Shown piece by piece: positions 379-63,846 of a stretch of DNA of 64,000 nucleotides. Position 1 is the stretch's first letter; every line of letters begins with the position of its first letter. Origin of the DNA: Candidatus Obscuribacteraceae bacterium (lineage in GTDB: Bacteria; Cyanobacteriota; Vampirovibrionia; Obscuribacterales; Obscuribacteraceae); NCBI GenBank assembly GCA_044229845.1, contig JBGASG010000004.1:433827-497826 (forward strand). Direction: 5' to 3'. The position numbers and the translations under genes are program-made. The notes beneath the pieces were generated by a model. It made no database searches and was not told the origin of the DNA. It was given only the letters and a program-made list of their open reading frames with translations.

Positions 379-395
379 TACGACGTTATATAGTT
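379..395. other. ACTA-N7-TAGT family site (variant TACGA-N7-TAGTT)
   Basis: Between convergent genes, right after a terminator T-tract. Confidence 0.6.
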
Positions 396-643
396 GCAAA
401 AACGCACTAAAACACTAAAAAGCCGGGGGAGGGCGAGATGCACTGATCGCCGAGTTGCGTCCGATGCATCTCGCCCTCTGCTGGCCCGGCACAGGGCCGC
501 TCCGGCCTTAGAAACCTGCAAACTCGTCCCTGATGGCCCAGTGAATGGACGGATCATGGCGATTCGGCCCAGCACTGGGCCACGACCTGGACATGAATGA
601 TCCGTCGACGGCATGCGCGCGGTGCTCGGGTGGTACGACCGCC

Positions 644-1309
644 TTACCAGGCAGCCCGGTGCTTGAGCGGTGGTCCGTAAAACCAGCCGATCAACTGCGA
701 AACCTCCGCATCCCGGCAAGCCAGCGCCTCGCTCACGACTTGCTCGCGCCGCAGCAGCGCCGCGTCGTACTGCTCACGGAAAGGCAGCAGGGCAGCCTCC
801 GCCGCGGACAGCAGCACACCAAGGCGATCGACTTCGGTGTTCTGCCGCAGCAGCACCGATTTCATCGCCTGATAGCGGTGCTCCTTCGCGATCTCAACTG
901 CGCGCTGGTCGGCGCCCGCGGCGAGCAGTTTGTTGACCTGCGACTCTTCGCGTGCCGACACCTCCATCACGCAGTCGATCTTCGCTTTGTTGGCATCGGC
1001 GAGGTTAGACTGCGCCTTCTCGAAGGCGGCGCCAACGTCCGCGAACGGACCGATCGCCTCTTCGAACTCGACTCCGGCCGCTCGCACCGCCGACTCGTAA
1101 TTGAGGCTTAGCACCGCGATCGTCCGCAACTTTTCGCAGTCGGGCGAGGGCAGCTCCGTCCGGCAGACCTGGCACTCCTGGCGCAGCGCGGCACAGGACA
1201 TGCAGAGGCGACAGCCCAGCGATGTTTCCGCACTGCATTCGATGCAGGGCGTGGGCAAGGGCAACGGGTGGTCCCGGTGCGCGGCACAGAGAACCTTTTC
1301 TTTGGTCAT
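644..1309 (-). CDS. Hypothetical protein, Cys-rich (Zn-binding) N-terminus plus helical/coiled-coil region
   Basis: CAAH..CIEC..CRLCMSC..CQVC motifs; AAGGA RBS before ATG at 1309. Confidence 0.7.
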   Translation of the reverse strand: MTKEKVLCAAHRDHPLPLPTPCIECSAETSLGCRLCMSCAALRQECQVCRTELPSPDCEKLRTIAVLSLNYESAVRAAGVEFEEAIGPFADVGAAFEKAQSNLADANKAKIDCVMEVSAREESQVNKLLAAGADQRAVEIAKEHRYQAMKSVLLRQNTEVDRLGVLLSAAEAALLPFREQYDAALLRREQVVSEALACRDAEVSQLIGWFYGPPLKHRAAW

Positions 1310-1403
1310 GTCATTCCTTCGTTTTGTGTTCACGAGTCGTTCACAGTTTTTTCCGAACTAATTCCGTCCGGTGCACGTACATTGGCGGCAAGAGGGACGA
1401 GCT

Positions 1404-1688
1404 ATGTCAAACAACCCACCATCTGATACGAGAACCGGCGGAGCCAAAATCGTCGACGCGATTGCCGCCGGCAGTACGCAAGCCTTGCGCGAGGCGCTCA
1501 ACGGTCTGAGTCCTCGCGACCTGCAGCAGATTTATGTCGAGATCAATCAACGCAACGCCGAACGGCAGGCCGATAGCCTGCCTCCTGTGACGGTGATCGT
1601 CAACGATCAAGACCATGACGGAAGGATCGACGCCACCGGCACCAATACCGACAATGGTAGAACCATAGCGGCGGAGGCAGACAGCTAG
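1404..1688 (+). CDS. Hypothetical protein
   Basis: ORF MSNNPPSD... with GAGGG upstream, plausible composition. Confidence 0.6.
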   Translation: MSNNPPSDTRTGGAKIVDAIAAGSTQALREALNGLSPRDLQQIYVEINQRNAERQADSLPPVTVIVNDQDHDGRIDATGTNTDNGRTIAAEADS

Positions 1689-1868
1689 TCAGTCCTGCAG
1701 CGGATCCGCCAGTCCCAAGCGCAGGACATCTTCCGGGCTGAGAAAGAAATCCGCATCACTGCGGCTCTGGTCGCCCGCGCGGCCAGCGTGAACTTCATGC
1801 AGTGGCGCGAACAGCGAGTCGTCGGCGTTGCGCACGAGCAGAAACTTCGCTCGGTCGAGGTTGTGCAT
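1689..1868 (-). CDS. 59-aa small protein with ClpP-C-terminus-like motif
   Basis: Read by hand (below the ORF-track cutoff): GGAG RBS, MHNLDRAKFLLVRNADDSLFAPLHEVHAGRAGDQSRSDADFFLSPEDVLRLGLADPLQD. Confidence 0.5.
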   Translation of the reverse strand: MHNLDRAKFLLVRNADDSLFAPLHEVHAGRAGDQSRSDADFFLSPEDVLRLGLADPLQD

Positions 1869-2169
1869 AGCTTCTCCATTCTCTTGGTGGTTGCGCTAAC
1901 TTCGCACCATGAGTGGTGCATCTCAACGGTCGTCTCACTCACGGAAGTCCGTGAGTGAAGGCATGAAAAACTGGTTGAACTGACTGTTTACGCTGGTTTC
2001 GAGTCGGAAGTGCGGGAGGAAAAGAAGATGACTTCACCCTAACTCTCAAAATGCCGGCACACCAGTTATCCACCGTTTTTATGTACTCATAGTTGCCAAA
2101 TCCGCTTGGCAGCGATAGCGCTAGCGTAGCACCGCATACGGTGGCGTAAACAAGTCGTAAACAAGGCGT

Positions 2170-4963: not shown

Positions 4964-5110
4964 CGCCCTGGGAGTCGCCCTCCGTTTCCCGGAGCATCGG
5001 CTGCGTTTCACAACCGGGCTCAGACAGCCCCACTTGCTGCAGTCATCCTGCCGCACAAATCCAGCGTGGAATGAAGGACTCCCGCGCTTTCATGGAAGGT
5101 TCTCGGAACA

Positions 5111-5941
5111 TTGATTCCAATCATCCTGGCTGCCGCCACCTGGCTCTTGCTCGTGGCCGCCACCGTCGTCTACGCCCGCCGCCGCTATCACTACTGGCAG
5201 GGGCACGCCCGTCACATGCAGGAGAGCGGTTATCTGGTGCCGCCGGCATCGTTGACCGCGCGGTTGGCTCACCGCCTGGTGACACGAGCGCTCGTCTACC
5301 TGGGCGTCGGTCCGATCAAAGTAAGCGGTCGCCGCGAGCTGATGTTGCCCGGACGCAAGATCTACGTCGCGAATCATCAGTTCAACCTGGACTTCGCCGT
5401 CTGCTCCGTGGCCGCCCGCACATGCTGCCCGGTGATGACCAAGTCTGCCGAGCTGAGGCCGCCCCCGCTGGCACTGCTCAGCGCATGGAGCGGCTCCGCC
5501 ATCCCCGTCAACATCAACGAAGCCGGAGGCGGACAGAAGGCATTCGCCGCCAGTGTTCGCCACCTGCAGCGCCGCCGCGACAGCGAATTCCTGATCTTTC
5601 CGCAGGGCGCGCTGTTCGACAGGCTGCAACTGGAGGACTTCAAGTCCGGCGCCGCGCGCCTGCAGAAAGCGGTGGCAGACGCCACTGACGGTGATCCGGT
5701 CTGGCTGATTCCGATGTACATCGAATACCAGCAAACCGGATCGAGGCCCATCTCCGAGTTCGTCTTCAAGAAGACACGCTCGATCTTCGGCAAGGTCCAG
5801 TACGGCGCAACGGTGCGCATCGGCGAGCCGATCGCCTACAACAGCGCCCGCAGCATCGACGGCACCACCGCCATCATCTACTCGCGCATCGCCAACCTGC
5901 AGCGCGCGTCCTTCGCCCTGTCCCGACGACGATCCCGTTAG
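5111..5941 (+). CDS. Lysophospholipid acyltransferase (PlsC family)
   Basis: NHQFNLD (HX4D) and FPQG motifs, N-terminal TM. Confidence 0.85.
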   Translation: MIPIILAAATWLLLVAATVVYARRRYHYWQGHARHMQESGYLVPPASLTARLAHRLVTRALVYLGVGPIKVSGRRELMLPGRKIYVANHQFNLDFAVCSVAARTCCPVMTKSAELRPPPLALLSAWSGSAIPVNINEAGGGQKAFAASVRHLQRRRDSEFLIFPQGALFDRLQLEDFKSGAARLQKAVADATDGDPVWLIPMYIEYQQTGSRPISEFVFKKTRSIFGKVQYGATVRIGEPIAYNSARSIDGTTAIIYSRIANLQRASFALSRRRSR

Positions 5942-5949
5942 GAACTCTC

Positions 5950-6765
5950 GTGATCAATCTATTCGCCCCGCTGCTGGTCGTCACGGCGCTGGCAGTGTGC
6001 GCTCTTCTCTATTACGGGCGCTACAAACCCTGGGTCGAGAAGAAACAGTCATACATCGCGCGCTACACCAAATGCGGTGCCCTGCCCCCAACTCCGACAC
6101 CGGAAGCGTGGCGGAAGTTCCGGCGCATCGTACGCTTCCTGATCTTCATCCAGGTCGGACGAGTGCGCTTCGAGGGACTGGAACATGCACACATCCCCGG
6201 TCCCAAGCTGATCACCCCGAATCACGGCAGTTCCGCCGATGTGGCGATGGCGCTGGCCTTTCCAACGCCGTTCCGGTCGCTGGCAACGCGCGGTCTCTTC
6301 ACCATCGGCGGCGGTCTGGGCGCACTCATGTTCGGTCCCGTCGGCGCCATTCCGGTGGACCTGACACCCGGACAGGGCGGACCGGCACGCAACACCGCGG
6401 TCGACATCGTCGTCTCCGGAGAGCCGCTGCTCATGTTCCCCGAAGGTTGGGCGTACATGGACGGGCGCATCGGACCGATGAAGAAAGGCGCCGTGCGCAT
6501 CGCCCGGGAAGCGGCACGCGAACTGGGACAACCGGTGCACCTCGTGCCTGCATACATGCGCTACGGCAAGTACCCCGGCAAGTGGATCTTGCGCTTCGTG
6601 CCGCCGGTGCAGTACTTGCTGGCGTTCGTCCTCTTCCCACTCTACCGGCGGGGCTTGACGGTGGTCTTCGCGCCGCCGATCAGCTCCGCCGACCTGCCGG
6701 ATGATGACACGCTCGCGACGCAGATGCTGCGCAACGCAATTCTGGCTGCCGACCCGCAGGGTTAG
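5950..6765 (+). CDS. Lysophospholipid acyltransferase (PlsC family)
   Basis: NHGSSAD (HX4D), FPEG, KKGAVRIA. Confidence 0.9.
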   Translation: MINLFAPLLVVTALAVCALLYYGRYKPWVEKKQSYIARYTKCGALPPTPTPEAWRKFRRIVRFLIFIQVGRVRFEGLEHAHIPGPKLITPNHGSSADVAMALAFPTPFRSLATRGLFTIGGGLGALMFGPVGAIPVDLTPGQGGPARNTAVDIVVSGEPLLMFPEGWAYMDGRIGPMKKGAVRIAREAARELGQPVHLVPAYMRYGKYPGKWILRFVPPVQYLLAFVLFPLYRRGLTVVFAPPISSADLPDDDTLATQMLRNAILAADPQG

Positions 6766-8310: not shown

Positions 8311-8327
8311 AACTACAGTTGCTAGTA
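8311..8327. other. ACTA-N7-TAGT family site
   Basis: AACTA CAGTTGC TAGTA, between convergent genes. Confidence 0.7.
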
Positions 8328-9400: not shown

Positions 9401-9417
9401 TACTATGTCTTTTAGTT
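9401..9417. other. ACTA-N7-TAGT family site
   Basis: TACTA TGTCTTT TAGTT. Confidence 0.7.
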
Positions 9418-19318: not shown

Positions 19319-19335
19319 TACTATACCTCTTCGTA
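19319..19335. other. ACTA-N7-TAGT family site (variant)
   Basis: TACTA TACCTCT TCGTA, between convergent genes. Confidence 0.6.
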
Positions 19336-24183: not shown

Positions 24184-24200
24184 TACTATTCGCCTTAGTA
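24184..24200. other. ACTA-N7-TAGT family site
   Basis: TACTA TTCGCCT TAGTA, between convergent genes. Confidence 0.75.
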
Positions 24201-26725: not shown

Positions 26726-26742
26726 TACTATTGCTTTTAATA
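26726..26742. other. ACTA-N7-TAGT family site (variant)
   Basis: TACTA TTGCTTT TAATA. Confidence 0.6.
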
Positions 26743-35956: not shown

Positions 35957-35973
35957 TACGATGCTATATCGTA
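35957..35973. other. ACTA-N7-TAGT family site (symmetric variant)
   Basis: TACGA TGCTATA TCGTA. Confidence 0.6.
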
Positions 35974-39031: not shown

Positions 39032-39048
39032 TACTATTTGCAATAGTT
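39032..39048. other. ACTA-N7-TAGT family site
   Basis: TACTA TTTGCAA TAGTT, after a terminator, between convergent genes. Confidence 0.72.
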
Positions 39049-50688: not shown

Positions 50689-50705
50689 TACTACGCCATT
50701 TAATA
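50689..50705. other. ACTA-N7-TAGT family site (variant)
   Basis: TACTA CGCCATT TAATA, between convergent genes. Confidence 0.6.
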
Positions 50706-50951: not shown

Positions 50952-52523
50952 TCAACCTTTCTTTTTTTCGTTGCCGCGGAAAAGCAGTCTGCGTCCGCGG
51001 TTGCTGATCAGCAGGTAGCCGACGACAAGGACAACTGCCGCGACGATGTTGAAGAACGTCGGGAAGAAACCCTGCTCAGCCGCCTGCGAGCCGAAGTCGT
51101 GCTCCAGCTCTTGATGCGACTTGCCGGCAATGTTGCGACCGTCCTGCACTTGATTGAAACGCTGCGTAGCCAGCTTGACGATGTACTCGTGCGCGGCTTT
51201 CAGCGCCAGATCTTCGGTGCTGCCCTGACGCGGTTGCACGACGACTTGATCGGGCGTGATGCCCTTGTCGAGTATGTCGCGACCGGACGGCGTCAGGTAC
51301 TTCATCGTGGTGATCTGCAGGATTGCCCGATTGGGCAGCTCAGTGTCACGGAACCCGACCGACTTGCCAAAGGACTGCTCTCCGATCACGAAGGCGCGCT
51401 TGTTGTCTTGAAGAGCGCCGGTCGTGACCTCAGACGCGCTGGCACTGCTGCCATTGATCAACACCACCAGGGGCGTGTTGTGCGCCCAGTTGATGAAGTC
51501 GACCATATGCGGATCCGTCATCAGTCTTTTGGCAAACGGCGGCATCGCCGTGACGTTGTATTCGATGACCTTTTCAGAGATACCGTCGCGCTCTGTCGTC
51601 TTGGTGATGTTGCCAGACTCGAGAAACAGCGACGTCACTTTCAGAGCCATGTCGAACAGCCCGCCGGAGTTGTTGCGCAGATCAAACACGACGCCCGTTA
51701 CCTCGCCCTTCTGCTGCATGTAAACACGCCGCAGCTGGTTGAGGAAATCTTCGACGACTCTGACGTCGACGAAGGTGGGCAGCCGGATGTAGAGGACGTT
51801 GCTGGGCAACATCCTGAGCGTGACGCGCTCTTGAATCGGCGGCGTCAAAGTCATCTGCACCTGGTGCTCTTGCCCGTCATAAACGGCGGTCACCATCATG
51901 GTGTCACCGGGTTGTCCGAGGAAGATGTCCCAGGCTTGATACTCGTCCAGCTTGTTGCCAACGGGCTTGCCGTTGACTGCGACCACGACGTCACCCTCCT
52001 TGAGCCCCGACACGAATGCCGGCGAACCCCAGGTGATGTTGTCGATATGCCATTTGCCGTCAGCATGACGGCGGATGATCACACCGGCCTGCACCATGCC
52101 CTGGGCTTCCATCTGCTTGTGAGCGATGGTCGTCTTCAGGCTCTGGTACTTGGTCCAGCGGTCACCGACCGTTTGCACAAGTTCGGTGATGGCAGCGTCG
52201 AGGTCTTCGTCGCTGTTCAGCTTGCCATTGTATTTGGTGGCGAGCTTGTCCCAATCTTGAAGCTTGGACGGGTCGATGTATTCGTCGGCGATCTGCTGCC
52301 AGACTTTGTGGTAGAGCGCCTCGCGCATGGCAGGCGTCGGTTCCACCACTTGCTGCCCGTTCGGACCGGCAAACGGGGTGCCGGCAGGCACCGCATCACC
52401 GGGCGGAAGGGTTGATTGGGAAGCGGGCGCCTGGGGAGGCGGCGCTTCCTGGGCGGTGGCCACAGCCAGCCAGCTCGCCGTGAGCAGCACCAGCAGCGCC
52501 ACCAGAGTTTTGGTCAGTTTCAT
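50952..52523 (-). CDS. Carboxyl-terminal processing protease (S41A, PDZ)
   Basis: Signal peptide, PDZ (GSPAFVSGLKEGD), DLRNNSGG, SASASE, GEQSFGKS, C-terminal TM. Confidence 0.92.
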   Translation of the reverse strand: MKLTKTLVALLVLLTASWLAVATAQEAPPPQAPASQSTLPPGDAVPAGTPFAGPNGQQVVEPTPAMREALYHKVWQQIADEYIDPSKLQDWDKLATKYNGKLNSDEDLDAAITELVQTVGDRWTKYQSLKTTIAHKQMEAQGMVQAGVIIRRHADGKWHIDNITWGSPAFVSGLKEGDVVVAVNGKPVGNKLDEYQAWDIFLGQPGDTMMVTAVYDGQEHQVQMTLTPPIQERVTLRMLPSNVLYIRLPTFVDVRVVEDFLNQLRRVYMQQKGEVTGVVFDLRNNSGGLFDMALKVTSLFLESGNITKTTERDGISEKVIEYNVTAMPPFAKRLMTDPHMVDFINWAHNTPLVVLINGSSASASEVTTGALQDNKRAFVIGEQSFGKSVGFRDTELPNRAILQITTMKYLTPSGRDILDKGITPDQVVVQPRQGSTEDLALKAAHEYIVKLATQRFNQVQDGRNIAGKSHQELEHDFGSQAAEQGFFPTFFNIVAAVVLVVGYLLISNRGRRLLFRGNEKKKG

Positions 52524-52615
52524 GTTTCTCTCATGCGAGAACGACGGGCGCGTAGTCCCGTCGTTTCTCCTTGGTTAGGTCTCGCCTCAGTGGGCGAGAG
52601 GCTGCTACATGTGAC

Positions 52616-53662
52616 TCACTGGGAAAGCCGGGGAATGATGCGCGCCAACTCTTGCAGCAGCGCAGCGGTTTCCTGGCCGGTCAAACGCGACTGTCCATAG
52701 ATCGAACGGTCCAGCTTGGCCAGGGCACTGAGGCTCAACTCAATGAGCTCGATGCCCAACTCGTGCGAGTCGAAGAAACGCTCCAGTGGCTGGCGAGCAA
52801 ACTGGGTGGCAATCGATTCGATCTCCAGATATTCACGCAACGCCGCCGAAATGAGCTTCAGCTGCGTGGGCGTAAATTCATCGGCACCGGCGCTTCCGCG
52901 CTGATCCATGACGTGGTCGATTACTTTCCAGGCACGCTCCGCGCGCGAGAGTTTCCTCTCTTCGCGGAAGTTGCACCAGAGCAGGTAGAGCATCCAGAGG
53001 GGGATGCAGAGCATGACGGCGCCGCCGGTGTATTCCAGTGGTTGTGACCACCAGACACGCGGGGTTACCTTCACGCTCATGTCACCGTTGAGCAGCTCTT
53101 TGCTGCTTTCGGTGGCGGTGCGCGACGTCGTGATCACGAAGTCGGGCGTCGTTGCCAGTTTCCACGCCGGGGTCGTGCCGTCAGGCAAAAGTCCTGTCGC
53201 GTAGTGAAACTGACAGTTGAACGTCAGCACCGTGTCCATCATCCAGCTGCGAACTACCAGCTGAATGATGGTGATGTGCTTGCCGTTGAGATCCCTGGTT
53301 GTCACCACCGGCGGCGCCACCATTTCGAATTTGGAGCCGTCTTTGTTGAGCGTCTTGTTGGCCAGGGCGCCCGTGTCCACCACGATCTCAGGGTCCGCGG
53401 ATATCACGATGGTAATCGGGATCGACTGACCCGTGCGATAGCCATAGTTGACGGAAGGTCCGTCTGCGAACCGCCGCGTGGTGGCGACAGTGATGATCAA
53501 CCGTCCCGCCTCCAGAACGCCCGTCACTGGATTTTCCAGGGCCGGCGCAGCTGGTGCGGGTTCAGTCGGGTAGGGTGGGCTGACATCAGCCAGCGCCGGG
53601 GAAGAAACGCCCAGCGCTAGAATAACTGCTGATGCCGCCACCAACAGGATTTTTCTGGTCAT
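52616..53662 (-). CDS. MxaA/BatD-like exported accessory protein
   Basis: Signal peptide, NYGYRTGQSI, TM and helical C-terminus; position after DUF58. Confidence 0.55.
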   Translation of the reverse strand: MTRKILLVAASAVILALGVSSPALADVSPPYPTEPAPAAPALENPVTGVLEAGRLIITVATTRRFADGPSVNYGYRTGQSIPITIVISADPEIVVDTGALANKTLNKDGSKFEMVAPPVVTTRDLNGKHITIIQLVVRSWMMDTVLTFNCQFHYATGLLPDGTTPAWKLATTPDFVITTSRTATESSKELLNGDMSVKVTPRVWWSQPLEYTGGAVMLCIPLWMLYLLWCNFREERKLSRAERAWKVIDHVMDQRGSAGADEFTPTQLKLISAALREYLEIESIATQFARQPLERFFDSHELGIELIELSLSALAKLDRSIYGQSRLTGQETAALLQELARIIPRLSQ

Positions 53663-53696
53663 CTAACCAGTCCTTTCTGTTGCTTGGTAGCCGTTG

Positions 53697-54653
53697 CTAC
53701 AAGGCACCGTGACCAGCAAATAGGTCTAGAACCCGCTCGATGGCGCTCTCCTCTTCCTCAGTGCTGAGGGCGATGAGGTCGCAACCACAGGCTTCGATGG
53801 CGGAGCGCACGGCAGCTTCATGAGCTTGCCAGTTCTCCGTCCACCTCTGCCTGGTGCGCGGGTTGTTCCACACCCATTTGCTTTCTCCACTGGCGTCCTC
53901 GATCCGGTAGAAATAACCCAGTCGTGCCAACCAGCCTTTGCCCTCAGAGCCCGGCAATTCACGCTCGCGACGGTCTTGCACGTAAATGCAGAGAACATCG
54001 TGGGTGAGGGACAGATTGCTGAGAGACTCCCAGTCTTGCGCGCTCATGTTCAGAAAGTCACTGATCACAAACACCAGGTGCCGAGAGTTGGGCAGGATGG
54101 AAACCGCCTTGGTCAGTCCATCTCCGGGGTGCGCGTCCAGGTGGGACGACGCGGAGACATCCGCTTCCAGAATTTCGACCAGGCTCGGTATGAGATTGAG
54201 CCGTGCCGGTCGCGTGGGCAGCGTTTCGTGCACAGTGTCACGCGTGAAGAGCGTGCATCCCACCTTGTCCCTGGTCTTATCCAGAGCGTAGTGAATCGAT
54301 GCAGCGACTTCGGCGGCGACACCACGTTTGGTGCTGCGTTCCGTGCCATAGTCCATAGACAGGCTGACATCAACGAAGATGTGCGCCTTGATTTCCTTGC
54401 GCTGGCGATAGATCGTCTTGTAGATCTCATCGTCGTCGCCGGCTTGGGCAGTGGCAACCCAGTTGATATGGCGTTCGTCGTCACCGTCTTGGAAGAGAGT
54501 GGTGCCGAGAAAGTCCAATCCGGGTCCGCGGCGCGTACCTTTGCGATTGCCGACGCCGGGAAACGGGTTGTCCGTCCGCCACGACACAGGTATCGCACAG
54601 TAAGCCACACGCTGGAGAATTGCTTCGATCTCCTGTTCAGTTTCTGCTTTCAT
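53697..54653 (-). CDS. DUF58 (MxaS-like) protein
   Basis: GPGLDF..GDDERHINWVATA, DVSLSMDYG, VISDF. Confidence 0.9.
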   Translation of the reverse strand: MKAETEQEIEAILQRVAYCAIPVSWRTDNPFPGVGNRKGTRRGPGLDFLGTTLFQDGDDERHINWVATAQAGDDDEIYKTIYRQRKEIKAHIFVDVSLSMDYGTERSTKRGVAAEVAASIHYALDKTRDKVGCTLFTRDTVHETLPTRPARLNLIPSLVEILEADVSASSHLDAHPGDGLTKAVSILPNSRHLVFVISDFLNMSAQDWESLSNLSLTHDVLCIYVQDRRERELPGSEGKGWLARLGYFYRIEDASGESKWVWNNPRTRQRWTENWQAHEAAVRSAIEACGCDLIALSTEEEESAIERVLDLFAGHGAL

Positions 54654-54696
54654 GGAAAACTCCTCCTTTGCAGACAGGAACCAGTCCCACTGCGGT

Positions 54697-55743
54697 TTAC
54701 GACTTCTGAGGGGCGTAGTCGCTCTCGTTGGTCGTCAGAAGAGGAATCCCACGCAGAGCAGTGATAATCAGCTTGTCGGGCGTAGTCGCCTTGCGCTGAA
54801 TAGCCCGCTGATGCAGGAAGAGCCGATGCCGAATGACGTCCTTGTAGACGTACTGGATGTGCTCCGGCAGAACATAACCCTTGCCCATGTGAAAGGCACG
54901 GATCTGCGCTGCCGCCATCATGCTTTGCAGGGCACGCGGGCCGCCGCCAATCTCGATGGCATCTTTGTAGACGAGACCCTCGTCGCCCGTGCGGGAAACG
55001 ATCAGGTCGAAGTGCTTGTCGCCGGGACGTGTTCCGCGAACCAGTGCCCTGATGTAGGCACGAGCGGCATCGGACACGAACGTCTCGCTGCCGATGCGTT
55101 GGCGCAGAGCCAGAATATCGGCGACGGTGACATGCGGCTGGATATCCTTGAACGGATCACCGCTTTTCAGCACTTGCTGATTGCGCATCAGCCGGTCCTC
55201 ATCCTCTTCCGACACGTAGCCCATGTCGATTTTGAAGAGAAAGCGGTCCAGCTGCGGTTCCGGAAGCGGGTAGGTACCTTCGCTCTGGCGCGGGTTCTGC
55301 GTGGCAAGCACACAGAAAAGGTCCGGCACACGGAAGGTCTGCCCGGCTATGGATACCGAGTTTTCAGCCATCGGCTCCAAGAGCGCAGACTGAGTCTGCG
55401 GCGTGGTGCGGTTGATCTCGTCGGCGAGCACGATGTTGTTGAACACCGGTCCTTTGACGATTTCGTACTGGCTCTTTTCGCGGTTGTAGATGCGGTTGCC
55501 TTTGATGTCGGCCGGCATCATATCCGGTGTCATCTGGAACCGCGCCCACGATGCGTCTTTGATGGCCCGCCCGAAGGCATTGGCCGTGACGCTCTTGGCG
55601 AGACCCCAGACAGCCTCCAGAAGCACATGTCCGCCCGGCGCGAAGAGGGTGTAAGCCACCTTCTCCGTCATCTCGGGATAACCGACGACAACCTTGCGAA
55701 CTTCAGTCAGAATCCCCTCGATGGGGTTGATAGTTTGAGACAT
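54697..55743 (-). CDS. moxR: MoxR-family AAA+ ATPase
   Basis: RFQMTPDMMPADI, LADEINRTTPQTQSALLE, ATQNP, GTYPLPEPQLDRF. Confidence 0.95.
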   Translation of the reverse strand: MSQTINPIEGILTEVRKVVVGYPEMTEKVAYTLFAPGGHVLLEAVWGLAKSVTANAFGRAIKDASWARFQMTPDMMPADIKGNRIYNREKSQYEIVKGPVFNNIVLADEINRTTPQTQSALLEPMAENSVSIAGQTFRVPDLFCVLATQNPRQSEGTYPLPEPQLDRFLFKIDMGYVSEEDEDRLMRNQQVLKSGDPFKDIQPHVTVADILALRQRIGSETFVSDAARAYIRALVRGTRPGDKHFDLIVSRTGDEGLVYKDAIEIGGGPRALQSMMAAAQIRAFHMGKGYVLPEHIQYVYKDVIRHRLFLHQRAIQRKATTPDKLIITALRGIPLLTTNESDYAPQKS

Positions 55744-55782
55744 TGTTTTGTCTCCTGTTGCTATTGCTGCGACTAGCAGACG

Positions 55783-56868
55783 TCATTTCGAATTGCTTCG
55801 AGTGGCGCGTCTGCGGGATAAGAAGCCGGTCGAGACCAGCAGGCAGATGAGGGCGTAAGCGGCGCCGGCCAGATATCTGTCCAGCAGGCGGCGTTCGAAA
55901 ACGACTTTCGAACCGCTGATTTCCGTCATCCAATCGACTTGCACCACCTGCGACTGCGCATCCAGTTCGATGTGCTTGTAAGTGGCGTTCGTCATTGCTT
56001 TCAGGTTGCGGATGGCGTCTTCTTCGTAGGACGTGGTCAAAACCTTCCCGTCTACGACCATCTCGCCCTTGCGGGCTCCATCGACGTAGAGAGGAATAGC
56101 ATTCTCGCCGGGCATACCGATGCCGACGATGACCAGTTTTACGTTTTCAGACTGGAGCCGCTCCACTGTTTTAGCAATGCCCTCCTGGTCGCCGGTGTAG
56201 CCACCATCGGTCAGGAGCACGATTACCTGCTGTTTGCCTTTGCTATCCGCCTGCTTGAGCAGATCTAGCGCCATCTCAATACCTTTGGCGTAATTCGATC
56301 CGTCACCAGGGGCGGTGCCGATGTCGACCCAGTGCTTGAGCACAAAACGCAGCGCAGCAAAATCTTTGCTGAGCACGCCTTGCGCGAAGCCCTGTCCGGT
56401 GTAGGTCACCAGACCTACCTCGTTGCCGGCGATGGCATCCATTATCTTGCCCATCTGGTACTTGGCCATTTGCAGGCGGTTTCCCCAGGGCGAGTTCAGG
56501 TCAGGCACAGGACCTGCATCTGTCGGCATGTTCTGCCGGTAGTCTTCGGCCGCCATCGAACGCGAGACGTCCACGACGAACACCGCTTGCACCGGTCCTT
56601 CCGGCACGGTGCTGGGCTTGTCGTTTTGATATGGCTGGGCCGTCGCCACGATCAGCATAGTGACGGCGACCAAAAGTCCACCGTTGTATGTGATCTCGGC
56701 GAATGCGGATGATGCTTTGCCGGCGTTTCGTCCATCCCGGCGTCGAAAGCGCGCGGGACGAAACTCCAGACTGGCAGCTCTCCTTGCGCGGTAAGCCGCG
56801 AAAAGAAGCAACGCCAGGATGGGAACGCCAAGCAACATCCACAGGTATTCTTGATGAGCAAAACCCAT
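55783..56868 (-). CDS. VWA-domain membrane protein (BatB/MxaL-like)
   Basis: DVSRSM MIDAS, RLQMAK, LLTDG, terminal TMs. Confidence 0.88.
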   Translation of the reverse strand: MGFAHQEYLWMLLGVPILALLLFAAYRARRAASLEFRPARFRRRDGRNAGKASSAFAEITYNGGLLVAVTMLIVATAQPYQNDKPSTVPEGPVQAVFVVDVSRSMAAEDYRQNMPTDAGPVPDLNSPWGNRLQMAKYQMGKIMDAIAGNEVGLVTYTGQGFAQGVLSKDFAALRFVLKHWVDIGTAPGDGSNYAKGIEMALDLLKQADSKGKQQVIVLLTDGGYTGDQEGIAKTVERLQSENVKLVIVGIGMPGENAIPLYVDGARKGEMVVDGKVLTTSYEEDAIRNLKAMTNATYKHIELDAQSQVVQVDWMTEISGSKVVFERRLLDRYLAGAAYALICLLVSTGFLSRRRATRSNSK

Positions 56869-56895
56869 GGGCTTGTCCTTTCTCCGTGGTTTCAA

Positions 56896-57534
56896 CTAGA
56901 TGGCGTTAGGATCGCCACCTTTGCCGGAGCCATCGGTGGGTTTCTCGCCCGGAGCTTGCTTGGGATCGTGCCCACCGCCTTTGCCGTTGTTGCCCTGCGA
57001 TTGGGCAAGTTCCGGACTTTGCTTAAACAGCATCTCCAGATTGTGGATGGCGACATAGGCTTGATCAGCCAGGCGCGCAATGTCCTCCGGTGAGAGGTTT
57101 TGCACTTCGCCGGGCATGGTGAGCGCGATCAAAGCTGGATCGAGAGCGCCGGGGTTCAAGCTGATAGACTCTTTGAAAGCTTTCACTGCATCTTCCGGCT
57201 TTTGCTTGAGAAGAAACAGGACAGCTTTCTTGCTGAGCGCCAGAGCGGCGATCTCGCTTGATCGGGGCGGGTAGATGAGCGACTCCAACCAGCCGGGGTT
57301 AGCGGCGGCGTTGTACTCGTCGAGGCTCTTGTCTAAGTCGAGCATCGCTTCGTCGAGTGCTTTGGGATCGTTACCCTGGTGCGCCTTTTCGAAGAGGTCC
57401 CGTCCCTGATTGTAGTACCGGACCTGCGGAGACTCGTAGTTCTCCACATAGTATCCGGCGCCAAACATACTGATACCCAGCTTGGCGATCATGAATGGAA
57501 CGAGCAGCTGGCGCCAGTTTTTAATCGGTTTCAT
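56896..57534 (-). CDS. TPR-like protein (MxaK/BatC-like)
   Basis: TM, YYNQG, AVKAFKESISLNP, AIHNLEML and Gly/Pro-rich tail. Confidence 0.65.
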   Translation of the reverse strand: MKPIKNWRQLLVPFMIAKLGISMFGAGYYVENYESPQVRYYNQGRDLFEKAHQGNDPKALDEAMLDLDKSLDEYNAAANPGWLESLIYPPRSSEIAALALSKKAVLFLLKQKPEDAVKAFKESISLNPGALDPALIALTMPGEVQNLSPEDIARLADQAYVAIHNLEMLFKQSPELAQSQGNNGKGGGHDPKQAPGEKPTDGSGKGGDPNAI

Positions 57535-57551
57535 TTTGGACTCCTTCCATT

Positions 57552-58559
57552 TCAGACGCGCTCTCGGGTGAAAGCAACGCTGACTATGAAGAGGGAGAAG
57601 AACAGGCAGGCCGCCAGACCGAAGTAGAACGAAACGTCGTGAAACGTCTCAGCCAGCTCGGTATGAACGGTCGACTTCTCCAGCTTGTCGATGGTGGCAA
57701 CCGCGGCGAGCATCTGCTGCTCGTCGGCAACCGCGAAGATCTGCCCGCCTAGACCGGCGACCAGTTGCTTGAGCGGTTGCAGCCTTTCCGCAGATGATTT
57801 CTCCGGATCGGTCCAGGTTTCGCCAACGCCAAGCAGGTATAGCTTGCCGCCCAGCGCTTTCATCTCGGCAGTCAACTCGGCGATGCGCTCCGCGGAGAGC
57901 GGTGCGTCGCCGTCGCTGATGAGAATCAAGACTTTGGTGTCTGCCTTTCCATACTCCTTCCAGTGATCGATTACCGACTGGATAGGTCCGGTCGGACCTT
58001 CGAAGTTGGTGCCACCACCCACGGTAGAACCGCCGATCAGCCGGATCTTTTGCAGAATGATGCGCAGATCGTCGGTCATCGGCCAGTGCATGTAGGTGTT
58101 GTCGTCGAAAATGGCAAGCCCAACTCGATCTCCCTGTCGGTGAGAAACAAAGAAGGCGGCCGCGCGGGCGGCGGCGTCGATGCGCCGGCCCTGCGCTTTT
58201 CCGTCGGCTCCGATAATCTGCGTGTCCATCGAACCCGAGCTGTCGACGGCGATGAAAATATCGCGCGTCAGCATGCTGCGGGTCTCGTGAACCAGCGGAA
58301 TCACCGGCTGCGCCAACCAGAGGTTGATTGAGAGCATCGCCAACAGAAACAGTCCCTGCGGGACCAGGCTGAGTGCCGGCAATCCCGGCAAGTTCTTCTG
58401 CACTTTCACCGTCGTCACCAGCTCCGCCGGCTGACGCCGGCGCCTGATGTACGTGACGGCAAGCGAGAGCACGCTCAGCCACAACATAGTCTTCGCCAGG
58501 AGCTGCACGCTCAAGATGAGCGTCGCCAGCTCGAGAAGACTCGTATAAAAGTGGTGCAT
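57552..58559 (-). CDS. VWA-domain membrane protein (BatA/MxaC-like)
   Basis: DSSGSM, RQGDRVGLAIF, GGTN, ISDG. Confidence 0.9.
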   Translation of the reverse strand: MHHFYTSLLELATLILSVQLLAKTMLWLSVLSLAVTYIRRRRQPAELVTTVKVQKNLPGLPALSLVPQGLFLLAMLSINLWLAQPVIPLVHETRSMLTRDIFIAVDSSGSMDTQIIGADGKAQGRRIDAAARAAAFFVSHRQGDRVGLAIFDDNTYMHWPMTDDLRIILQKIRLIGGSTVGGGTNFEGPTGPIQSVIDHWKEYGKADTKVLILISDGDAPLSAERIAELTAEMKALGGKLYLLGVGETWTDPEKSSAERLQPLKQLVAGLGGQIFAVADEQQMLAAVATIDKLEKSTVHTELAETFHDVSFYFGLAACLFFSLFIVSVAFTRERV

Positions 58560-58576
58560 TGTCGCACTCCTTCTAC

Positions 58577-59692
58577 TTATTTTGGCTTCGTCGAAGCCGA
58601 CTCGCGCCCACTTTCGTTGGCGTTGAACCGGCTCATAGGGACATCCTTATCCAGTAGCGGCACCAGATAGCGGCTGTCGATCGGCGATGCTTTGCCGAAC
58701 CCGCCTTCAAAGTCGTAGCGGGTAGAAACGCCCGAGGGCGTGATCGTGTCAATCTGCGTGATGCTGCCGTTGCTTTGCACGCGCATCCGCTCGATGGTGC
58801 CACTGGCGTCGATCAGGTCGATAGACTTGATTCTTTGATCGCTCGTCAGCGTGATCTCGGTAGTCAGCCTGCCGTCGGTGTAAATGCCGACGCGCCTGAC
58901 AAAGATCTTGTTGGGATTGGGCTGTCCGCTTTCCGGATCCCAGTTATGGAGCGCCTCGTAGGCAAACCACTGTTCGAAGTCCGGACGTCCGTCCGCTTGA
59001 AAGTAAACGACCCGGATGAACGGTCGAAAGTAGTTTTGCCGGTACATTTCAGCACCGACCGGCGCTCCGGTCTCCGGATCGCTGAGTTGCAGAAAGAGGC
59101 GCAGGCGTCCTGTTTCGTCATACGATTTGCGCATGACCAAAAGGTCGTCCTGGTACTCGGTTTCCTGCCAGCGACTGCCGTCGACGCGGTAGAAAGTCGA
59201 TTGACTGATCTTTGATTGGCGTTCGTATCCGCGCTCAAGAAAAACCTGTCCGCCGGGCCAGAAGACCAGGGTGACGGTTTTGCTTTGGTCGGAAGAGAGC
59301 GCCGTAGTCCAGATGGGCGTGCGATCGCTGCGGTATTCATAACCGGAGATCAGCACGCCGTCGGCGTCGTATACAGCGTCCTTGCGATCGGTGCCGTCCG
59401 GAAAAGCGCGGTGCTCGTGCACCGTTTTTCCATGCGAACCGAGCTTGAGGAAACCATCAGAGCCGTCCTTGTATTTGATGCGCACCTCCGTCTCCGCGCC
59501 GGCAGCATTCAAAATATGAATCCGGTAGGACTCTTCAGATGAAGACGGCATGGGCTCGGTGTAGGAGGTGGGCGCTTGGGGAATATCGGATTTCGCGGTC
59601 TCGACGGTAATCGGTCGATGCATGAAAAACCCGATGGAAACTACGAGAGATACGCCCGCCAGGGAATATCCAAGAATCGATTGCAGGTTCAT
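58577..59692 (-). CDS. Membrane-anchored MORN/YwqK-like beta-repeat protein (paralog 3)
   Basis: GAGGAG RBS; TM; GYEYRSDRTPIW, FWPGG, FYRVDGSRW match paralogs 1 and 2. Confidence 0.72.
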   Translation of the reverse strand: MNLQSILGYSLAGVSLVVSIGFFMHRPITVETAKSDIPQAPTSYTEPMPSSSEESYRIHILNAAGAETEVRIKYKDGSDGFLKLGSHGKTVHEHRAFPDGTDRKDAVYDADGVLISGYEYRSDRTPIWTTALSSDQSKTVTLVFWPGGQVFLERGYERQSKISQSTFYRVDGSRWQETEYQDDLLVMRKSYDETGRLRLFLQLSDPETGAPVGAEMYRQNYFRPFIRVVYFQADGRPDFEQWFAYEALHNWDPESGQPNPNKIFVRRVGIYTDGRLTTEITLTSDQRIKSIDLIDASGTIERMRVQSNGSITQIDTITPSGVSTRYDFEGGFGKASPIDSRYLVPLLDKDVPMSRFNANESGRESASTKPK

Positions 59693-61030
59693 GGGCAATC
59701 TCCTCAGGTTCAGGTTGAAGATTCGGCAGAAACAGGGGCGCCAGTCGTCTTCGCCTTCCACACACTTAGCGCAACGCGCTAAAGAGCGACGCGAAAAGGT
59801 GTGAGGCAGTCGCTGCCGGAGGCAGCTGGCTGGGGCGGCGAAAAGCTTGATGGGGACGGTGGCTTGAGTGCAGTGAACCCTGTTTCGAAAGAATCGATTT
59901 GTTTGCTTTTTCAACCTATTCCCGCGCCGGCCGCAGACCTAGTTATAGCGAGATAATCTAGTGCCGCCGCGAGAACCGGATGGAAAGCCGCAAATAGGCA
60001 TCATCAGCGGAATTGCTAAGGAATTGTGATCGCAACCTAGCACACCACTGGATAGTTGTATCGACCAGAAGTTTTCTCTTTGACCTATCCACATTGGCGC
60101 AGCTCGCAGGCAGGGCCCGCACCACCTATAGTGGCGATGTCGCCTGGCGGTGATTGCCGATATCCGGTGCCGTGAGAGCGTTTAGGGTTTCGCGATTGAT
60201 TCAGTCGGCAGCAGTTTTTCGTTGCGCTCTCATCCTGACTGTCACGCGAGTCGTTAAGCAGCTGGAAATTGGTCAGGCTAACCTCGTAACAACTTATAAA
60301 GCAGCATTACCAATTGTAAAGCGCAAAGACATCATAAGCGCCACCGCCGGCGACATTAAAGTGGTAAGGCGTATTTTGCCAAAATAGATAAAATCGTATT
60401 ACCAGTGGGGTAATCACGATTGCCCGTCGCCGGACCCCACCTTACCATGCACTCATCTCCCCAGTTCGTCCAGAGAGGTCGCTCCCATGACATGTTTATT
60501 CTGGCGATTCTGGCGAACTGGAGAATTGCTCCGTCTGTCGAGCTTATCGATGACGAACATGCTCGCTTTACCCTGGTGCGGCGCCGGCAGGGAGACTCGA
60601 ACCCAGCCGTCTCACTGACTACAGGCGTCTGCCGCCACCGTCAGGAAGTGAAGTCGACCGCAAAGCAGCACGAATAGATTTGGACTGAACACACCAACCC
60701 GCAGCCGGAAAGACTCGCCCATCTTTCCGGCTGTTTCCTTTGCATGCCTTCTTCGTTTCTTGCCGGCGGCCGGAGAAAGGTGTTGCACCGTACCACTGAG
60801 AAAAGTGCGCCAGGTGGGGTTTCTTCATGGTTGTAAATAGGAATTGTGCGGACCTCGCGGCCCCTGGTAGAACGAAGACCTGGCGCTCTCACGTTCAAAC
60901 AGGAATTTCTCCTGCACGGACAACCTCCGAAATTGAATTTCCGTCGGTCACAACAAGCTCAAAAGTCGCTGTTCAGCGATGCGGACCCGACTGCCGAGAG
61001 CGCGCTCTCCAGCTGGAAGGACATCTGAAG

Positions 61031-61549
61031 ATGGCTGCTATCTCTGAGGAAGCAATTGTGCACGCGATCGTTGCCCACCTCAAAAAGCGCGTACAGGCTA
61101 TCGATGTTGCTTACTACTCAGCCCTGGGACAGAGGGTAGACAGAGAAAAGGTCACCCATGTGCGAATCGATGCGCACATCTATCTAGAGCAAGCGAAAAC
61201 ACTAATCGAGGTCAACTCGATCAACCAACTGCTTGACTGCATCGACCCGATCCCGAACATGTTCAAGCACTTTGTCGTGGCCCGCCGATTGTCAGCTCGC
61301 AGTCCAGTGTTTGCGCTGGCAGAGATGCTGCTGACCCGATACTTCGATCAGCAAAACGGCGACGACGCTAGTGGGGACCCCATGCAGTCCGTCGACCCGG
61401 CGCACATGATGATCGACTTTGCCGACCAGGTGGTGCGCGCCGCCGAAACGCTGGTGGGGAGAGCGACGGAACTGCTCAAACCTAAAGGTTCACGCGCCGC
61501 GATGCGCCGAGCACTACAAGCCCTGCGCAACGCCTTCAGACCAGCCTGA
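61031..61549 (+). CDS. Hypothetical protein
   Basis: GGAAGGA upstream of MAAISEE; start uncertain. Confidence 0.55.
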   Translation: MAAISEEAIVHAIVAHLKKRVQAIDVAYYSALGQRVDREKVTHVRIDAHIYLEQAKTLIEVNSINQLLDCIDPIPNMFKHFVVARRLSARSPVFALAEMLLTRYFDQQNGDDASGDPMQSVDPAHMMIDFADQVVRAAETLVGRATELLKPKGSRAAMRRALQALRNAFRPA

Positions 61550-61618
61550 TTTTCCTGCGGCAGGTGGCACCATAACTGGTGCCCCTGCACGCTCGCGAAC
61601 TTTTTCTTTCACCCCGCA

Positions 61619-61635
61619 TACTACCTCACTTAGTA
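61619..61635. other. ACTA-N7-TAGT family site
   Basis: TACTA CCTCACT TAGTA, upstream of dinB. Confidence 0.75.
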
Positions 61636-61659
61636 CGCCCAGGGGAAGAAACTCCGCGG

Positions 61660-62817
61660 TTGCCTGCCGCGATCGGAAACGCTATCTTTTTCCAAGCGCA
61701 GGCGCATCGGAAAAAAGCCATCCAGGACAATCAAACCCCACCAGCGGTACGCAAGATCATCCACGTAGATATGGATGCCTTTTACGCATCGGTTGAATGT
61801 CGCGACGAGCCCAGCTACCGGGGCAAACCGCTCGTGGTGGGCGGCATGCCCGAAGAGCGCGGCGTGGTCTGCACAGCCAGCTACGAAGCGCGCCAGTACG
61901 GCATCCATTCGGCCATGCCGGCGCGCCTGGCGGCGCAGAAGTGCCCGCATCTGATTTTTGTCCGCCCGCGCTTCCACGTATACAAAGAAGTGTCCGACCA
62001 GATTCGCGAGATATTCCTTGAATATACCGATCTCATGGAACCACTCTCGCTAGATGAAGCTTATCTGGACGTCACCGAAAACAAGAAAGGCATGCCGTCG
62101 GCATCACTTCTGGCCAAAGAGCTGCAAGACCGCATTTATGAAACCACTGCTTTGACGGCATCGGCGGGAGTTTCCTGCAACAAGTTTCTGGCCAAAACCG
62201 CTTCCGGATACCGCAAGCCCGCCGGTCTGTATCTGATACCACCGGCGGCGGCAGAGTCGTTTGTGGCGGAACTGGCAATCGACAGATTCTACGGCATCGG
62301 ACCGGTGACCGCCGAGAAGATGCGCGCCCTGGGCGTACACAACGGCGCCGACCTGCGCCATTGGAGCGAAGCCGACTTGATCAAAAACTTCGGCAAAGCC
62401 GGTTCCTATTACTATCAGATTGCCCGCGGCATCGATGATCGACCGGTGGAACCCAATCGCATCAGAAAATCACTGGGCGCTGAAGAGAGTTTCGCGCGCG
62501 ATCTTATTGATGTTTCTTCCATGCTGAATGCGCTGCAAGAGATCGCAGCCACGCTGGAGAGGCGCATGCTGGCTAACAATGCGGCGGGCAAAACTCTCAC
62601 GCTGAAAGTCAAATATGCCGACTATGTGCAGGTGACACGCTCACGTACATTGACTATTTCTATTGCGAAAGCTGACGAAATGTTGCCGATTGCTGCGGAA
62701 TTGTTGCGCACCACCGAAGTTGAACAAAGACACGCAAGGCTCTTGGGGCTTGCGATTACGCAATTGGATGGCGAGAAGGATACAGATTTTCTGCAACTGA
62801 CCTTGGAATTCTCCTGA
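61660..62817 (+). CDS. dinB: DNA polymerase IV
   Basis: RKIIHVDMDAFYASVE, SYEARQYG, SLDEAYLD, NKFLAK; start uncertain (TTG at 61660 chosen). Confidence 0.95.
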   Translation: MPAAIGNAIFFQAQAHRKKAIQDNQTPPAVRKIIHVDMDAFYASVECRDEPSYRGKPLVVGGMPEERGVVCTASYEARQYGIHSAMPARLAAQKCPHLIFVRPRFHVYKEVSDQIREIFLEYTDLMEPLSLDEAYLDVTENKKGMPSASLLAKELQDRIYETTALTASAGVSCNKFLAKTASGYRKPAGLYLIPPAAAESFVAELAIDRFYGIGPVTAEKMRALGVHNGADLRHWSEADLIKNFGKAGSYYYQIARGIDDRPVEPNRIRKSLGAEESFARDLIDVSSMLNALQEIAATLERRMLANNAAGKTLTLKVKYADYVQVTRSRTLTISIAKADEMLPIAAELLRTTEVEQRHARLLGLAITQLDGEKDTDFLQLTLEFS

Positions 62818-63012
62818 CTTTTTCACGCACCAGCTATAGTGAAAATACAGTTGGCTACTAACGAGTTGCGGGGATAGTCTCAGACCGCTCTCGTAGAACC
62901 CGCATGACCGCAGCGTTTTAGCAAGCGCTTGGCGCCGCCGTGCGCGCGTTCATACATACACGCATAAATTTGGTGTTGGACTTGTCGTGCCCAACCAGGG
63001 CAGGGAGAACCC

Positions 63013-63570
63013 ATGAAGATTGATTTGCCTTACTTGCCCCTGTCGGGCGCCATGTTGAATTTCGGCATCGGAAGATGCGCCACCGGCTGGATGATTGAAG
63101 AACTTGTCGGACATCGCCAGTTCATGAAACACTGCCTGTCCGCCGGTAACACCACGCAACCGGTGTCGCTGCTGGCCTTCATCGCCGTGCGGGCGCCCTA
63201 CGTCGACCTGGTCAACGACATAAATCACATTGTTTGCTGCAACGACGCCGGCGCCAAGAATCCGGTTTATTTCTCGACCGCCTTCCGCATGCTGCCTGAC
63301 TTGCTCGAGAAACACCGGGAGTACTTCGAGTGCATATCGAGCCCGGTGCGCGTCCTGGCCACCATAGCCAAGATCCAGGGCATCATCGACCGCAGCGAGC
63401 CGGATGGCGGTGAACTGGACGCGTTTCGCGGGCGGCTCTGCTTCAAGCAGTGCAAGCTCTTCGCACCGGCGGTGCCGATCTGTCAGAAAAAACCACCGGC
63501 GTTCAAGATACTGCGCAAGCTGGCTCTCTCCCGGGTCAGCCGTGCGCTATCTTCCCATCAGCAGCAGTAA
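63013..63570 (+). CDS. Hypothetical protein
   Basis: GGGAG RBS, 185 aa. Confidence 0.55.
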   Translation: MKIDLPYLPLSGAMLNFGIGRCATGWMIEELVGHRQFMKHCLSAGNTTQPVSLLAFIAVRAPYVDLVNDINHIVCCNDAGAKNPVYFSTAFRMLPDLLEKHREYFECISSPVRVLATIAKIQGIIDRSEPDGGELDAFRGRLCFKQCKLFAPAVPICQKKPPAFKILRKLALSRVSRALSSHQQQ

Positions 63571-63829
63571 TTCCGGTAACCAAGCAAGTTTGATTTGGCG
63601 CACGAAAAGCGGCCCCGCTGCCACCACTAACGGTGACAGCGGGCGTCCGCTTGAGTAAGAAACCGCACAATCAGCCCGCCGGCCCGGAGCTGGGCCGAAT
63701 CTCTATCTACTGTCCATGCTCCGGGCCGGAGTCGTCTTTTTAGCTCATTTGCTGGACGTTGCCGGCCCAGTAGCGGGCCACACGACCTGCCCGCAATTCC
63801 TTCTTATGTCGAGGCGACATCGTCGTATA

Positions 63830-63846
63830 TACTATCACTTCTAGTA
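63830..63846. other. ACTA-N7-TAGT family site
   Basis: TACTA TCACTTC TAGTA. Confidence 0.75.

Follow-up and report, generated by a model that had tools for sequence, protein, structure and literature searches.

The stretch analysed here, called the window throughout, is 64,000 nucleotides of DNA from a Candidatus Obscuribacteraceae bacterium (contig JBGASG010000004.1, positions 433,827 to 497,826), and it holds eleven copies of a 17-bp palindrome with the consensus TACTA-N7-TAGTA, in which two 5-bp arms enclose a 7-bp spacer. We found that sites of this motif form an origin-centred domain in several genomes and that insertion sequence (IS) elements of two families land beside them at fixed offsets. 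Judging from the comparative analysis described below, the motif is probably recognised by a DNA-binding protein of the host, which would mark and organise the origin-proximal chromosome in the manner of ram and ricS sites, in genomes where ParB was not found.

In the assembly G000 (5.16 Mb, 88% complete), the window forms the end of contig C19. All eleven copies listed in a preliminary description of the window were recovered at their positions, and six of them have a perfect ACTA-N7-TAGT core; shuffled sequence gave a mean of 0.08 such cores and none of 100 shuffles reached six, in agreement with the earlier estimate of fewer than one by chance. The pattern WACTA-N7-TAGTW with up to one mismatch matched ten times in the window against a shuffle mean of 0.40, the eleventh copy, at 35957 (TACGA..TCGTA), having two mismatches to it. 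A position weight matrix (PWM) pooled from three genomes, window sites included, returned exactly the eleven copies and no other window match at a score of at least 8. By the calls of our own hexamer-based gene caller, six copies (379, 8311, 19319, 24184, 39032 and 50689) lie between convergent genes, as many as described before, four lie in tandem gaps, and the one at 63830 lies behind a plus-strand gene at the contig end; each copy is 69–259 bp from a called 3′ end, where about 70–260 bp had been estimated. The features are as follows (no strand unless one is given):

379..395, motif copy with a TACGA arm variant, convergent gap
8311..8327, motif copy, convergent gap between the 3′ ends of acyl-CoA dehydrogenase and cytidine deaminase genes
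9401..9417, motif copy, tandem gap, 145 bp behind a minus-strand gene
19319..19335, motif copy with a TCGTA arm, convergent gap
24184..24200, motif copy, convergent gap
26726..26742, motif copy with a TAATA arm, tandem gap, 131 bp behind a minus-strand gene
35957..35973, motif copy with TACGA/TCGTA arms, tandem gap, 128 bp behind a plus-strand gene
39032..39048, motif copy, convergent gap
50689..50705, motif copy with a TAATA arm, convergent gap
61619..61635, motif copy between a plus-strand gene, 69 bp behind whose end it lies, and a DinB/IMS-family gene that follows after 135 bp
63830..63846, motif copy, target mark of the adjoining IS1595-type insertion
63852..63859, probable target-site duplication of 8 bp, separated from the motif edge by 5 bp, proposed from the geometry of five copies in genome G095; its second copy would lie outside the contig
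63860..64000, minus strand, 3′ end of an IS1595-type transposase gene and element end (tblastx against the G095 element, E 5e-5; the G095 copy matches Pfam PF12760/PF12762)

A genome-wide count, which the preliminary description had proposed, bore out the enrichment and not a genome-wide spread: G000 has 15 perfect cores, six of them in the window and 13 on contigs C19 and C21, and its sites cluster from about 370 kb on C19 and 42 kb on C21 up to the contig ends. The spacer length of 7 bp is specific: with a relaxed arm pattern that involved no training, the G000 domain gave 39 matches at N7 against 9–22 at nine other spacer lengths, and no excess was seen outside the domain (487 at N7, 465–528 at the others). 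AT content does not explain these figures, domain intergenic DNA being 45.9% AT against 48.6% elsewhere. When a PWM was trained on these sites, 20 of 147 domain gaps in G000 carried a site compared with 5 of 2,600 gaps elsewhere, and for convergent gaps alone the counts were 12 of 20 and 0 of 291, respectively.

A search of the G000 assembly for dnaA returned no match, and the relation of the domain to the origin is seen in other genomes. In G095, a single contig, 40 of 41 loci matching the strict pattern fall within 2.41–3.06 Mb, with dnaA at 2.833 Mb and the GC-skew minimum at 2.82–2.84 Mb; an iterated PWM over the 800 kb analysed gave 118 sites (66 in convergent, 43 in tandem and 6 in divergent gaps, 3 in coding sequence). 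The 60 PWM sites of G010 span 1.75–2.32 Mb, dnaA and the GC-skew minimum both lying at 1.88 Mb. All 27 strict loci of G006 are at 147–1182 kb of its contig C1 (dnaA at 581 kb), 17 of the 19 in G204 are within 1.66–3.09 Mb (dnaA at 2.58 Mb), and 21 of the 29 in G201 are on the dnaA contig. Across genomes the domain measures 0.6–1.4 Mb and takes up the origin-proximal 13–21% of the chromosome. Over 201 genomes of the class, matches to the strict pattern and to its reversed control numbered 582 and 220 in 50 genomes of the order, 800 and 1,166 in 151 genomes of other orders, and 487 and 152 in the 34 genomes that encode the candidate protein described below; a very strict pattern, run over 81 class genomes, was too insensitive, giving 0 matches even for G000. 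The motif is order-wide, the order being, as far as we can infer, Ca. Obscuribacterales. GC content rises in the motif domain, from 0.555 to 0.58–0.60 in G000, from 0.50 to 0.52 in G010 and from 0.43 to 0.47–0.53 in G095, with a value at third codon positions of 0.71–0.78 in the G000 domain, which suggests a different mutation or conversion regime.

Within the domain the sites are tied to upstream 3′ ends and not to downstream starts. Among 265 gene-end sides, 186 have a hairpin followed by a U-tract, and in 110 of these 186 the terminator stem lies 13–24 bp from the motif, which puts a measure on the earlier remark that the copies usually follow a hairpin or T-tract; the distance from motif edge to stem peaks at 17–19 bp and is seldom below 13 bp. 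The T and A tracts that flank the motif are part of the terminators and not of the site. Divergent gaps are depleted, with 0 of 28 carrying a site in the G000 domain and 1 and 6 sites against 116 and 122 divergent gaps in two other genomes.

This geometry is also what might be expected if a host protein on the motif acted as a transcription roadblock or insulator, tightening termination and, in an origin region where dosage is high, preventing antisense transcription or read-through, while having no part in segregation. With a stem 17–19 bp away, RNA polymerase halted by a roadblock would stand roughly on the U-tract, and wide convergent gaps often have one site per terminator. The same spacing is expected, though, if sites merely avoid transcribed DNA, and among sampled G000 terminators a site accompanies 8 of 30 inside the domain and 0 of 55 outside it, so that ordinary terminators work without one. 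We regard a pure roadblock function as unlikely.

The repeats in the G095 domain are IS elements, and their position relative to the motif is fixed. Five identical IS1595-type copies (PF12760, a zinc ribbon, with PF12762, an ISXO2-like DDE domain) each end 13 bp from a site, made up of an 8-bp duplication plus 5 bp, the duplication being visible in four of them and the fifth being interrupted by an IS1380-type element; a search of the whole G095 genome found no copy of them beyond the domain or its edge. Taking G095, G010 and the window together, all nine distinct IS1595-type 3′ ends lie 13–14 bp from a site, in a biased sample drawn from mostly origin-domain DNA. The 44-aa piece of the transposase present in the window gave no Pfam match when searched alone. 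Five IS1380-type copies, identified by PF13701 (DDE_Tnp_1_4, 410 bits), CC...GG ends and 4-bp duplications, start 11 bp from a site, and in both families the centre of the duplication falls about 9 bp from the motif edge.

For the IS1380-type elements an independent test was made on 30 of 42 transposase matches from 61 family genomes, which amounted to 29 distinct elements. In 23 of them a left end could be made out. Of those 23, 18, from 14 genomes, have a site scoring at least 9 at 10–12 bp, the remainder comprising one with a weak site at 11 bp and four without a site; the chance of a site at three fixed positions is about 0.0013 per element. The fixed-offset targeting rule is well supported. 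Two such insertions end the G000 contigs C19 and C21. At the end of the window, a contig of run X17 (record 22) matches up to 63860 and continues for about 5.8 kb unlike the window, representing the empty allele, and a contig of run X6 ends at 63860; the IS1595-type insertion at 63860..64000 is the cause of the contig break. A third repeated element of 1.6 kb with an integrase core, present in two copies in G095 (L129-L130 and L153, at 2.561 and 3.032 Mb), has no fixed distance to the motif.

A side observation concerns the origin gene itself: dnaA is missing from many family assemblies that are otherwise 82–92% complete (G000, G001, G003, G016, G031 and 7 in a set of 36); the probable cause is breakage of the origin domain at IS copies together with poor binning. 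Breakage of contigs at insertions and the deviating GC content of the domain suggest why so many assemblies of the order come without dnaA.

The headline of the preliminary description had been that the palindromes may be attachment or scar sites of a cassette-shuffling system. In the form considered here, they would be crossover sites, confined to the origin region, at which a tyrosine recombinase inserts, excises or shuffles blocks of genes, similarly to pdif or integron sites. We consider this quite unlikely. Its appeal lies in the 5-bp arms around a fixed 7-bp spacer, in a 730-bp single-gene insert lying between two sites in G001 (G001:C9:104104-104851) where G000 has one site, and in one synteny break within 5 bp of a site; the inserted gene, absent from G000, we take to encode a small zinc-finger protein of the TraR/DksA type. 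In addition, 70 of 77 orthologues stay in the domain between G095 and G010 though gene order is scrambled, and a precedent for IS elements that target recombination sites exists in the IS1202 family, whose members abut XerCD sites at 5 bp in the accessible text of 10.1101/2022.12.17.520857. Other observations tell against it. Among 20 synteny breaks between G000 and G001, the comparison that the preliminary description had suggested, two are at a site, two more within about 70 bp of one, and 16 have no site nearby. Ten orthologous sites of the two genomes show mismatches at 5 of 100 arm positions, 10 of 70 spacer positions and 52 of 200 flank positions; at least nine of the ten keep related flanks on both sides and four keep an identical spacer. 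The arms are under selection and more conserved than the spacer or the flanks. Spacers differ among sites, a situation that homology-dependent recombinases disfavour, and no site-to-site joint was present among the 15 of 18 joints listed when four runs were compared with window positions 44001–64000, contigs being a source that drops rare variants.

Nor was a conserved recombinase found to accompany the domain, a search for one next to the sites having been suggested earlier. No integrase was found among 121 domain orthologues, 77 of them scanned with Pfam, binding by the chromosomal XerC/D lying outside that test. A gene on C21 of G000 at about 83.7 kb (L003:1471-2181), which we take to encode a FimB/FimE-like recombinase, has no site beside it. 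A pair of Xer-sized tyrosine-recombinase paralogues near oriC in G010 (L037:3509-4396 and 5100-5996) has catalytic motifs that, read by eye, are altered, and is present at 1–15 copies in 19 of 151 genomes, each of them a member of this same family. Integron attC sites have RYYYAAC..GTTRRRY ends and a long bottom-strand hairpin; in the sequences of the sites and in logos of their flanks nothing but the 17-bp core and the terminator T/A tracts is seen. Three tandem tyrosine recombinases at 46.9–49.3 kb of C22 in G000, presumably RIT-like, were also noted. Between G095 and G010, 37 of 76 orthologue adjacencies in the domain are broken, a count that has no matched control outside the domain; targeted IS copies could explain the scrambled order with no dedicated recombinase at work. 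The sites do behave as boundaries of mobility, as the preliminary description had it, in that IS elements insert at fixed offsets and gene order is scrambled, but they are probably not cassette-recombination sites.

The motif might instead have been made by the transposons, whose ends would carry it, whose transposases would read it directly and whose decayed ends would have seeded the genomic copies. The IS1595 element of G095 indeed has an internal motif copy (score 15.6) some 60 bp from one of its ends, and one IS1595-internal copy was the target of an IS1380 element; the G095 IS1380 element carries one 7 bp inside its right end (13.4), with two more IS1380-type right ends scoring 11.7 and 14.0. 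Most other right ends tested have no internal copy, however, and most of the 118 sites in G095 and 60 in G010 have no IS nearby. The conservation of the arms over spacer and flanks and the shared centre offset of two unrelated transposase families also speak against such an origin, which would leave the confinement to the origin domain unexplained, and we judge it very improbable.

Least credible is a promoter, bidirectional or antisense, made of two sigma-70 −10 elements back to back, or else a common regulon operator, for example a LexA box. TATAGT is similar to a −10 hexamer, 6.5–8.7% of 356 site-strands have a −35-like hexamer at a spacer of 15–18 against 2.5–4.5% at other spacers, and one window site precedes dinB, but the sites are depleted in divergent gaps, tied to upstream 3′ ends and confined to one chromosomal domain, and start sites from such −10 elements would lie about 28 bp apart, outside the 7–25 bp that define bidirectional promoters in the accessible text of PMC10268837. 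The LexA box was rejected since the best score in five of five lexA upstream regions is at most 4.8 and these regions carry a different box. This ACTTAC(G/A)TATGT-like sequence, located by a likely −10 element in all five (L269-L273; G204, G006, G000, G010 and G095), is probably the LexA operator of the order.

Returning to a host DNA-binding protein as the reader of the motif, a candidate was found among the 121 reciprocal best hits of two origin domains, 77 of which were scanned with Pfam and 15 inspected by eye. A truncated gene call had hidden a MerR-type helix-turn-helix (HTH) at the N-terminus (Pfam MerR_1, E 1.3e-14), followed by a coiled coil. The gene occurs at one locus per genome, inside the motif domain, in 33 of 47 genomes of the family and one of two of the sister family, and a search of 151 genomes of other orders found none; 16 genomes of the order are without it, 10 of which also have no dnaA. 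The HTH is nearly invariant, while the linker varies in length by hundreds of residues. The predicted structure (pLDDT 74) comprises the HTH, a 48-residue coiled-coil helix (92–139), a disordered, variable acidic linker and a C-terminal three-helix bundle. The top match of the HTH is the DNA-binding domain (DBD) of RacA (Foldseek E 2.4e-3, root-mean-square deviation (rmsd) 1.1; VIA Z 11.2, rmsd 1.2, 67 residues aligned), with TnrA and GlnR at Z 10.3–10.6. In the place where a pole or membrane anchor was looked for, the C-terminal bundle resembles the C-terminal domain (CTD) of lambda Red-beta at a middling Z of 6.8–7.0 (rmsd 1.9, 58 aligned), and the matched structures were solved with lambda exonuclease and with an SSB tail. 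The ESM Atlas gave 0.97 for the protein's own cluster and 0.80 for RacA clusters, which serves as a lead only. Sites are present in 54 of 68 loci around the candidate gene (79 sites against 12 in reversed sequence). On these grounds the best candidate binder, as a working hypothesis built on models and comparison, would be this order-restricted, single-copy MerR-type HTH, coiled-coil and Red-beta-CTD-like protein. The Xer-like pair of G010 was rejected in this role, its copies not being tied to the origin.

Of 31 class genomes searched for ParB (PF02195), two gave a match and 29 did not; many of these are incomplete metagenome-assembled genomes, and near-complete ones also lack a match. ScpA was found in five of five genomes. 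A literature search that took in no supplements and few subscription journals returned no description of the motif, of the candidate protein or of IS1380 or IS1595 insertion guided by a host motif.

The explanation that we favour would run as follows. A dimeric protein, the candidate described above, would bind the 5-7-5 palindrome and bridge or anchor the origin region, through pole tethering, help to SMC or contact with the replisome by its C-terminal domain. The position behind terminators may reflect the persistence of sites in DNA that RNA polymerase does not cross. Through DNA bending or contacts with transposases, the bound protein would direct IS insertion so that the duplication is centred about 9 bp away from the motif edge, and the IS copies that land in this way would be what scrambles the gene order of the domain. 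The preliminary description had mentioned binding sites of a chromosome-organising protein as its second option, and it is this option that the origin-centred domain and the avoidance of genes and divergent promoter gaps support.

Several observations weigh against this explanation, or against parts of it. The G187 genome has no motif excess even with the relaxed pattern (12 against 31), and 16 of the 34 genomes with the candidate protein are below the enrichment threshold for the strict pattern. Domain sites served to train the PWMs, and the checks that involved no training are the strict-locus maps, the reversed-control counts and the spacer-length test. The strand polarity of sites flips at dnaA in G006 and G201, and replichore polarity was rejected as a general rule since it is absent in G010 and G095. 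As to the protein, six genomes have dnaA and no candidate match, the gene was not found in the G000 assembly, and G095, G010 and G204 each have two or three MerR_1 matches; the survey covered orthologues shared by two origin domains. The RacA match is to the HTH only and within 1 Z unit of MerR, GlnR, TnrA and TipA, and the NCBIfam RacA model gives 13.4–15.2 bits, again in the HTH only, against a cut-off of 170, with CarH scoring higher. In 19 of 30 loci a site precedes the gene by no more than 320 bp; autoregulation, which this had suggested, was withdrawn, because the site is the one that follows the terminator of a gene lying in between, and it is absent in all four loci with a directly divergent deoB. 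Finally, other orders of the class in which ParB was not found have neither motif excess nor candidate protein, so that loss of ParB does not require the motif system. Those other orders may use a further system of their own.

If the parts are taken together, a bolder scenario can be put forward, which we hold only tentatively, at rather less than even confidence: Obscuribacterales may possess a dispersed centromere of up to about 120 palindromes with TnrA geometry, placed behind terminators over the origin-proximal 13–21% of the chromosome and read by a RacA-like binder that replaces ParB/parS and whose Red-beta-like domain links to SSB, the replisome or the pole, and at least two unrelated IS families may have independently evolved to land there, making the origin GC-rich and fast-shuffling. 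The favoured explanation offers a testable answer to how the origin is organised in an order where ParB was not found, with one motif and one small candidate protein, both simple to assay in vitro, and if true it would extend RacA/RicO-like systems beyond Firmicutes. The convergence of two IS families on one mark points to a general safe-landing mechanism, with a possible use in targeted integration.

Some further features of the sequence were recorded. Beside the site at 50689, window positions 50733-50888 hold a REP/MITE-like element of about 155 bp with long inverted arms, short matches to which are found at many places in G001. About 450 bp from the same site, at 50196-50240, run X17 has 1,097 other letters replacing 43 bases. 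Window positions 44700-45400 contain an array of related 30–40-bp units rich in TTGACAAAAC/TTTGTAAT, then a GGGTGC-type microsatellite, and similar units occur near the end of C21 and in G001. In the G000 assembly the word CACCR-N4-YGGTG occurs 1,265 times against 166 expected, evenly spread, and may be HIP-like or linked to a methyltransferase; four tRNA-Leu genes with different anticodons form a tight tandem array at C8:153905-154220.

As far as the accessible text of 10.64898/2026.03.06.710092 goes, RacA has 25 ram sites over about 600 kb around oriC in Bacillus subtilis, RicO has nine intergenic, non-palindromic 18-bp ricS sites over about 700 kb around oriC in Staphylococcus aureus, and a RicO family survey is of Firmicutes only. 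Repeated specific sites around oriC, common to RacA, RicO and RocS as origin-anchoring systems, were found here too, with G187 as the exception. The likeness to RacA and ram comprises many palindromic sites near oriC and a candidate whose HTH superposes on the RacA DBD (rmsd 1.1–1.2), with a coiled coil and a disordered linker. The ram site, in contrast, is a 14-bp GC-rich palindrome in coding sequences, whereas here an AT-rich 17-bp site of 5-7-5 build lies behind terminators in up to 118 copies; RacA is sporulation-specific and acts beside ParB, which was not found here, and the candidate has the order HTH, coiled coil, linker and an extra three-helix domain. RicO with ricS, and RocS of Streptococcus pneumoniae, share intergenic sites flanking oriC, an HTH with a coiled coil and a gene near the sites, but these proteins end in an amphipathic membrane helix and the candidate in a Red-beta-CTD-like bundle, and ricS is non-palindromic with nine copies.

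The geometry of the site recalls the operators of TnrA and GlnR, which these proteins bind as TGTNA-N7-TNACA with an essential 7-bp spacing (accessible text of PMC4335299), and the RacA DBD is described as resembling TnrA/GlnR in the accessible text of PMC4914108. The 17-bp length, the 5-bp half-sites, the obligatory 7-bp spacing and the HTH fold are the same; TnrA and GlnR, however, are nitrogen regulators at promoters, and the motif avoids divergent promoter gaps and is confined to the origin. For the insertions, the parallel is the IS1202 subgroup known as the ISAba32 group, which inserts 5 bp from XerCD sites (xrs/pdif; accessible text of 10.1101/2022.12.17.520857), at a fixed short distance from the site of a host protein and in one orientation, with the difference that here IS1380- and IS1595-type elements, two families, use one mark and that this mark is an origin-domain motif unlike dif. 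As domain-restricted repeated palindromes, parS/ParB and matS/MatP (the latter mentioned in the accessible text of PMC4914108) are also alike. The consensus sequences of parS and matS are unlike the motif, ParB was not found in 29 of 31 genomes, and matS marks the terminus. Taken as a whole, our analysis suggests that the motif system probably works like ram and ricS without membership of the RacA family.

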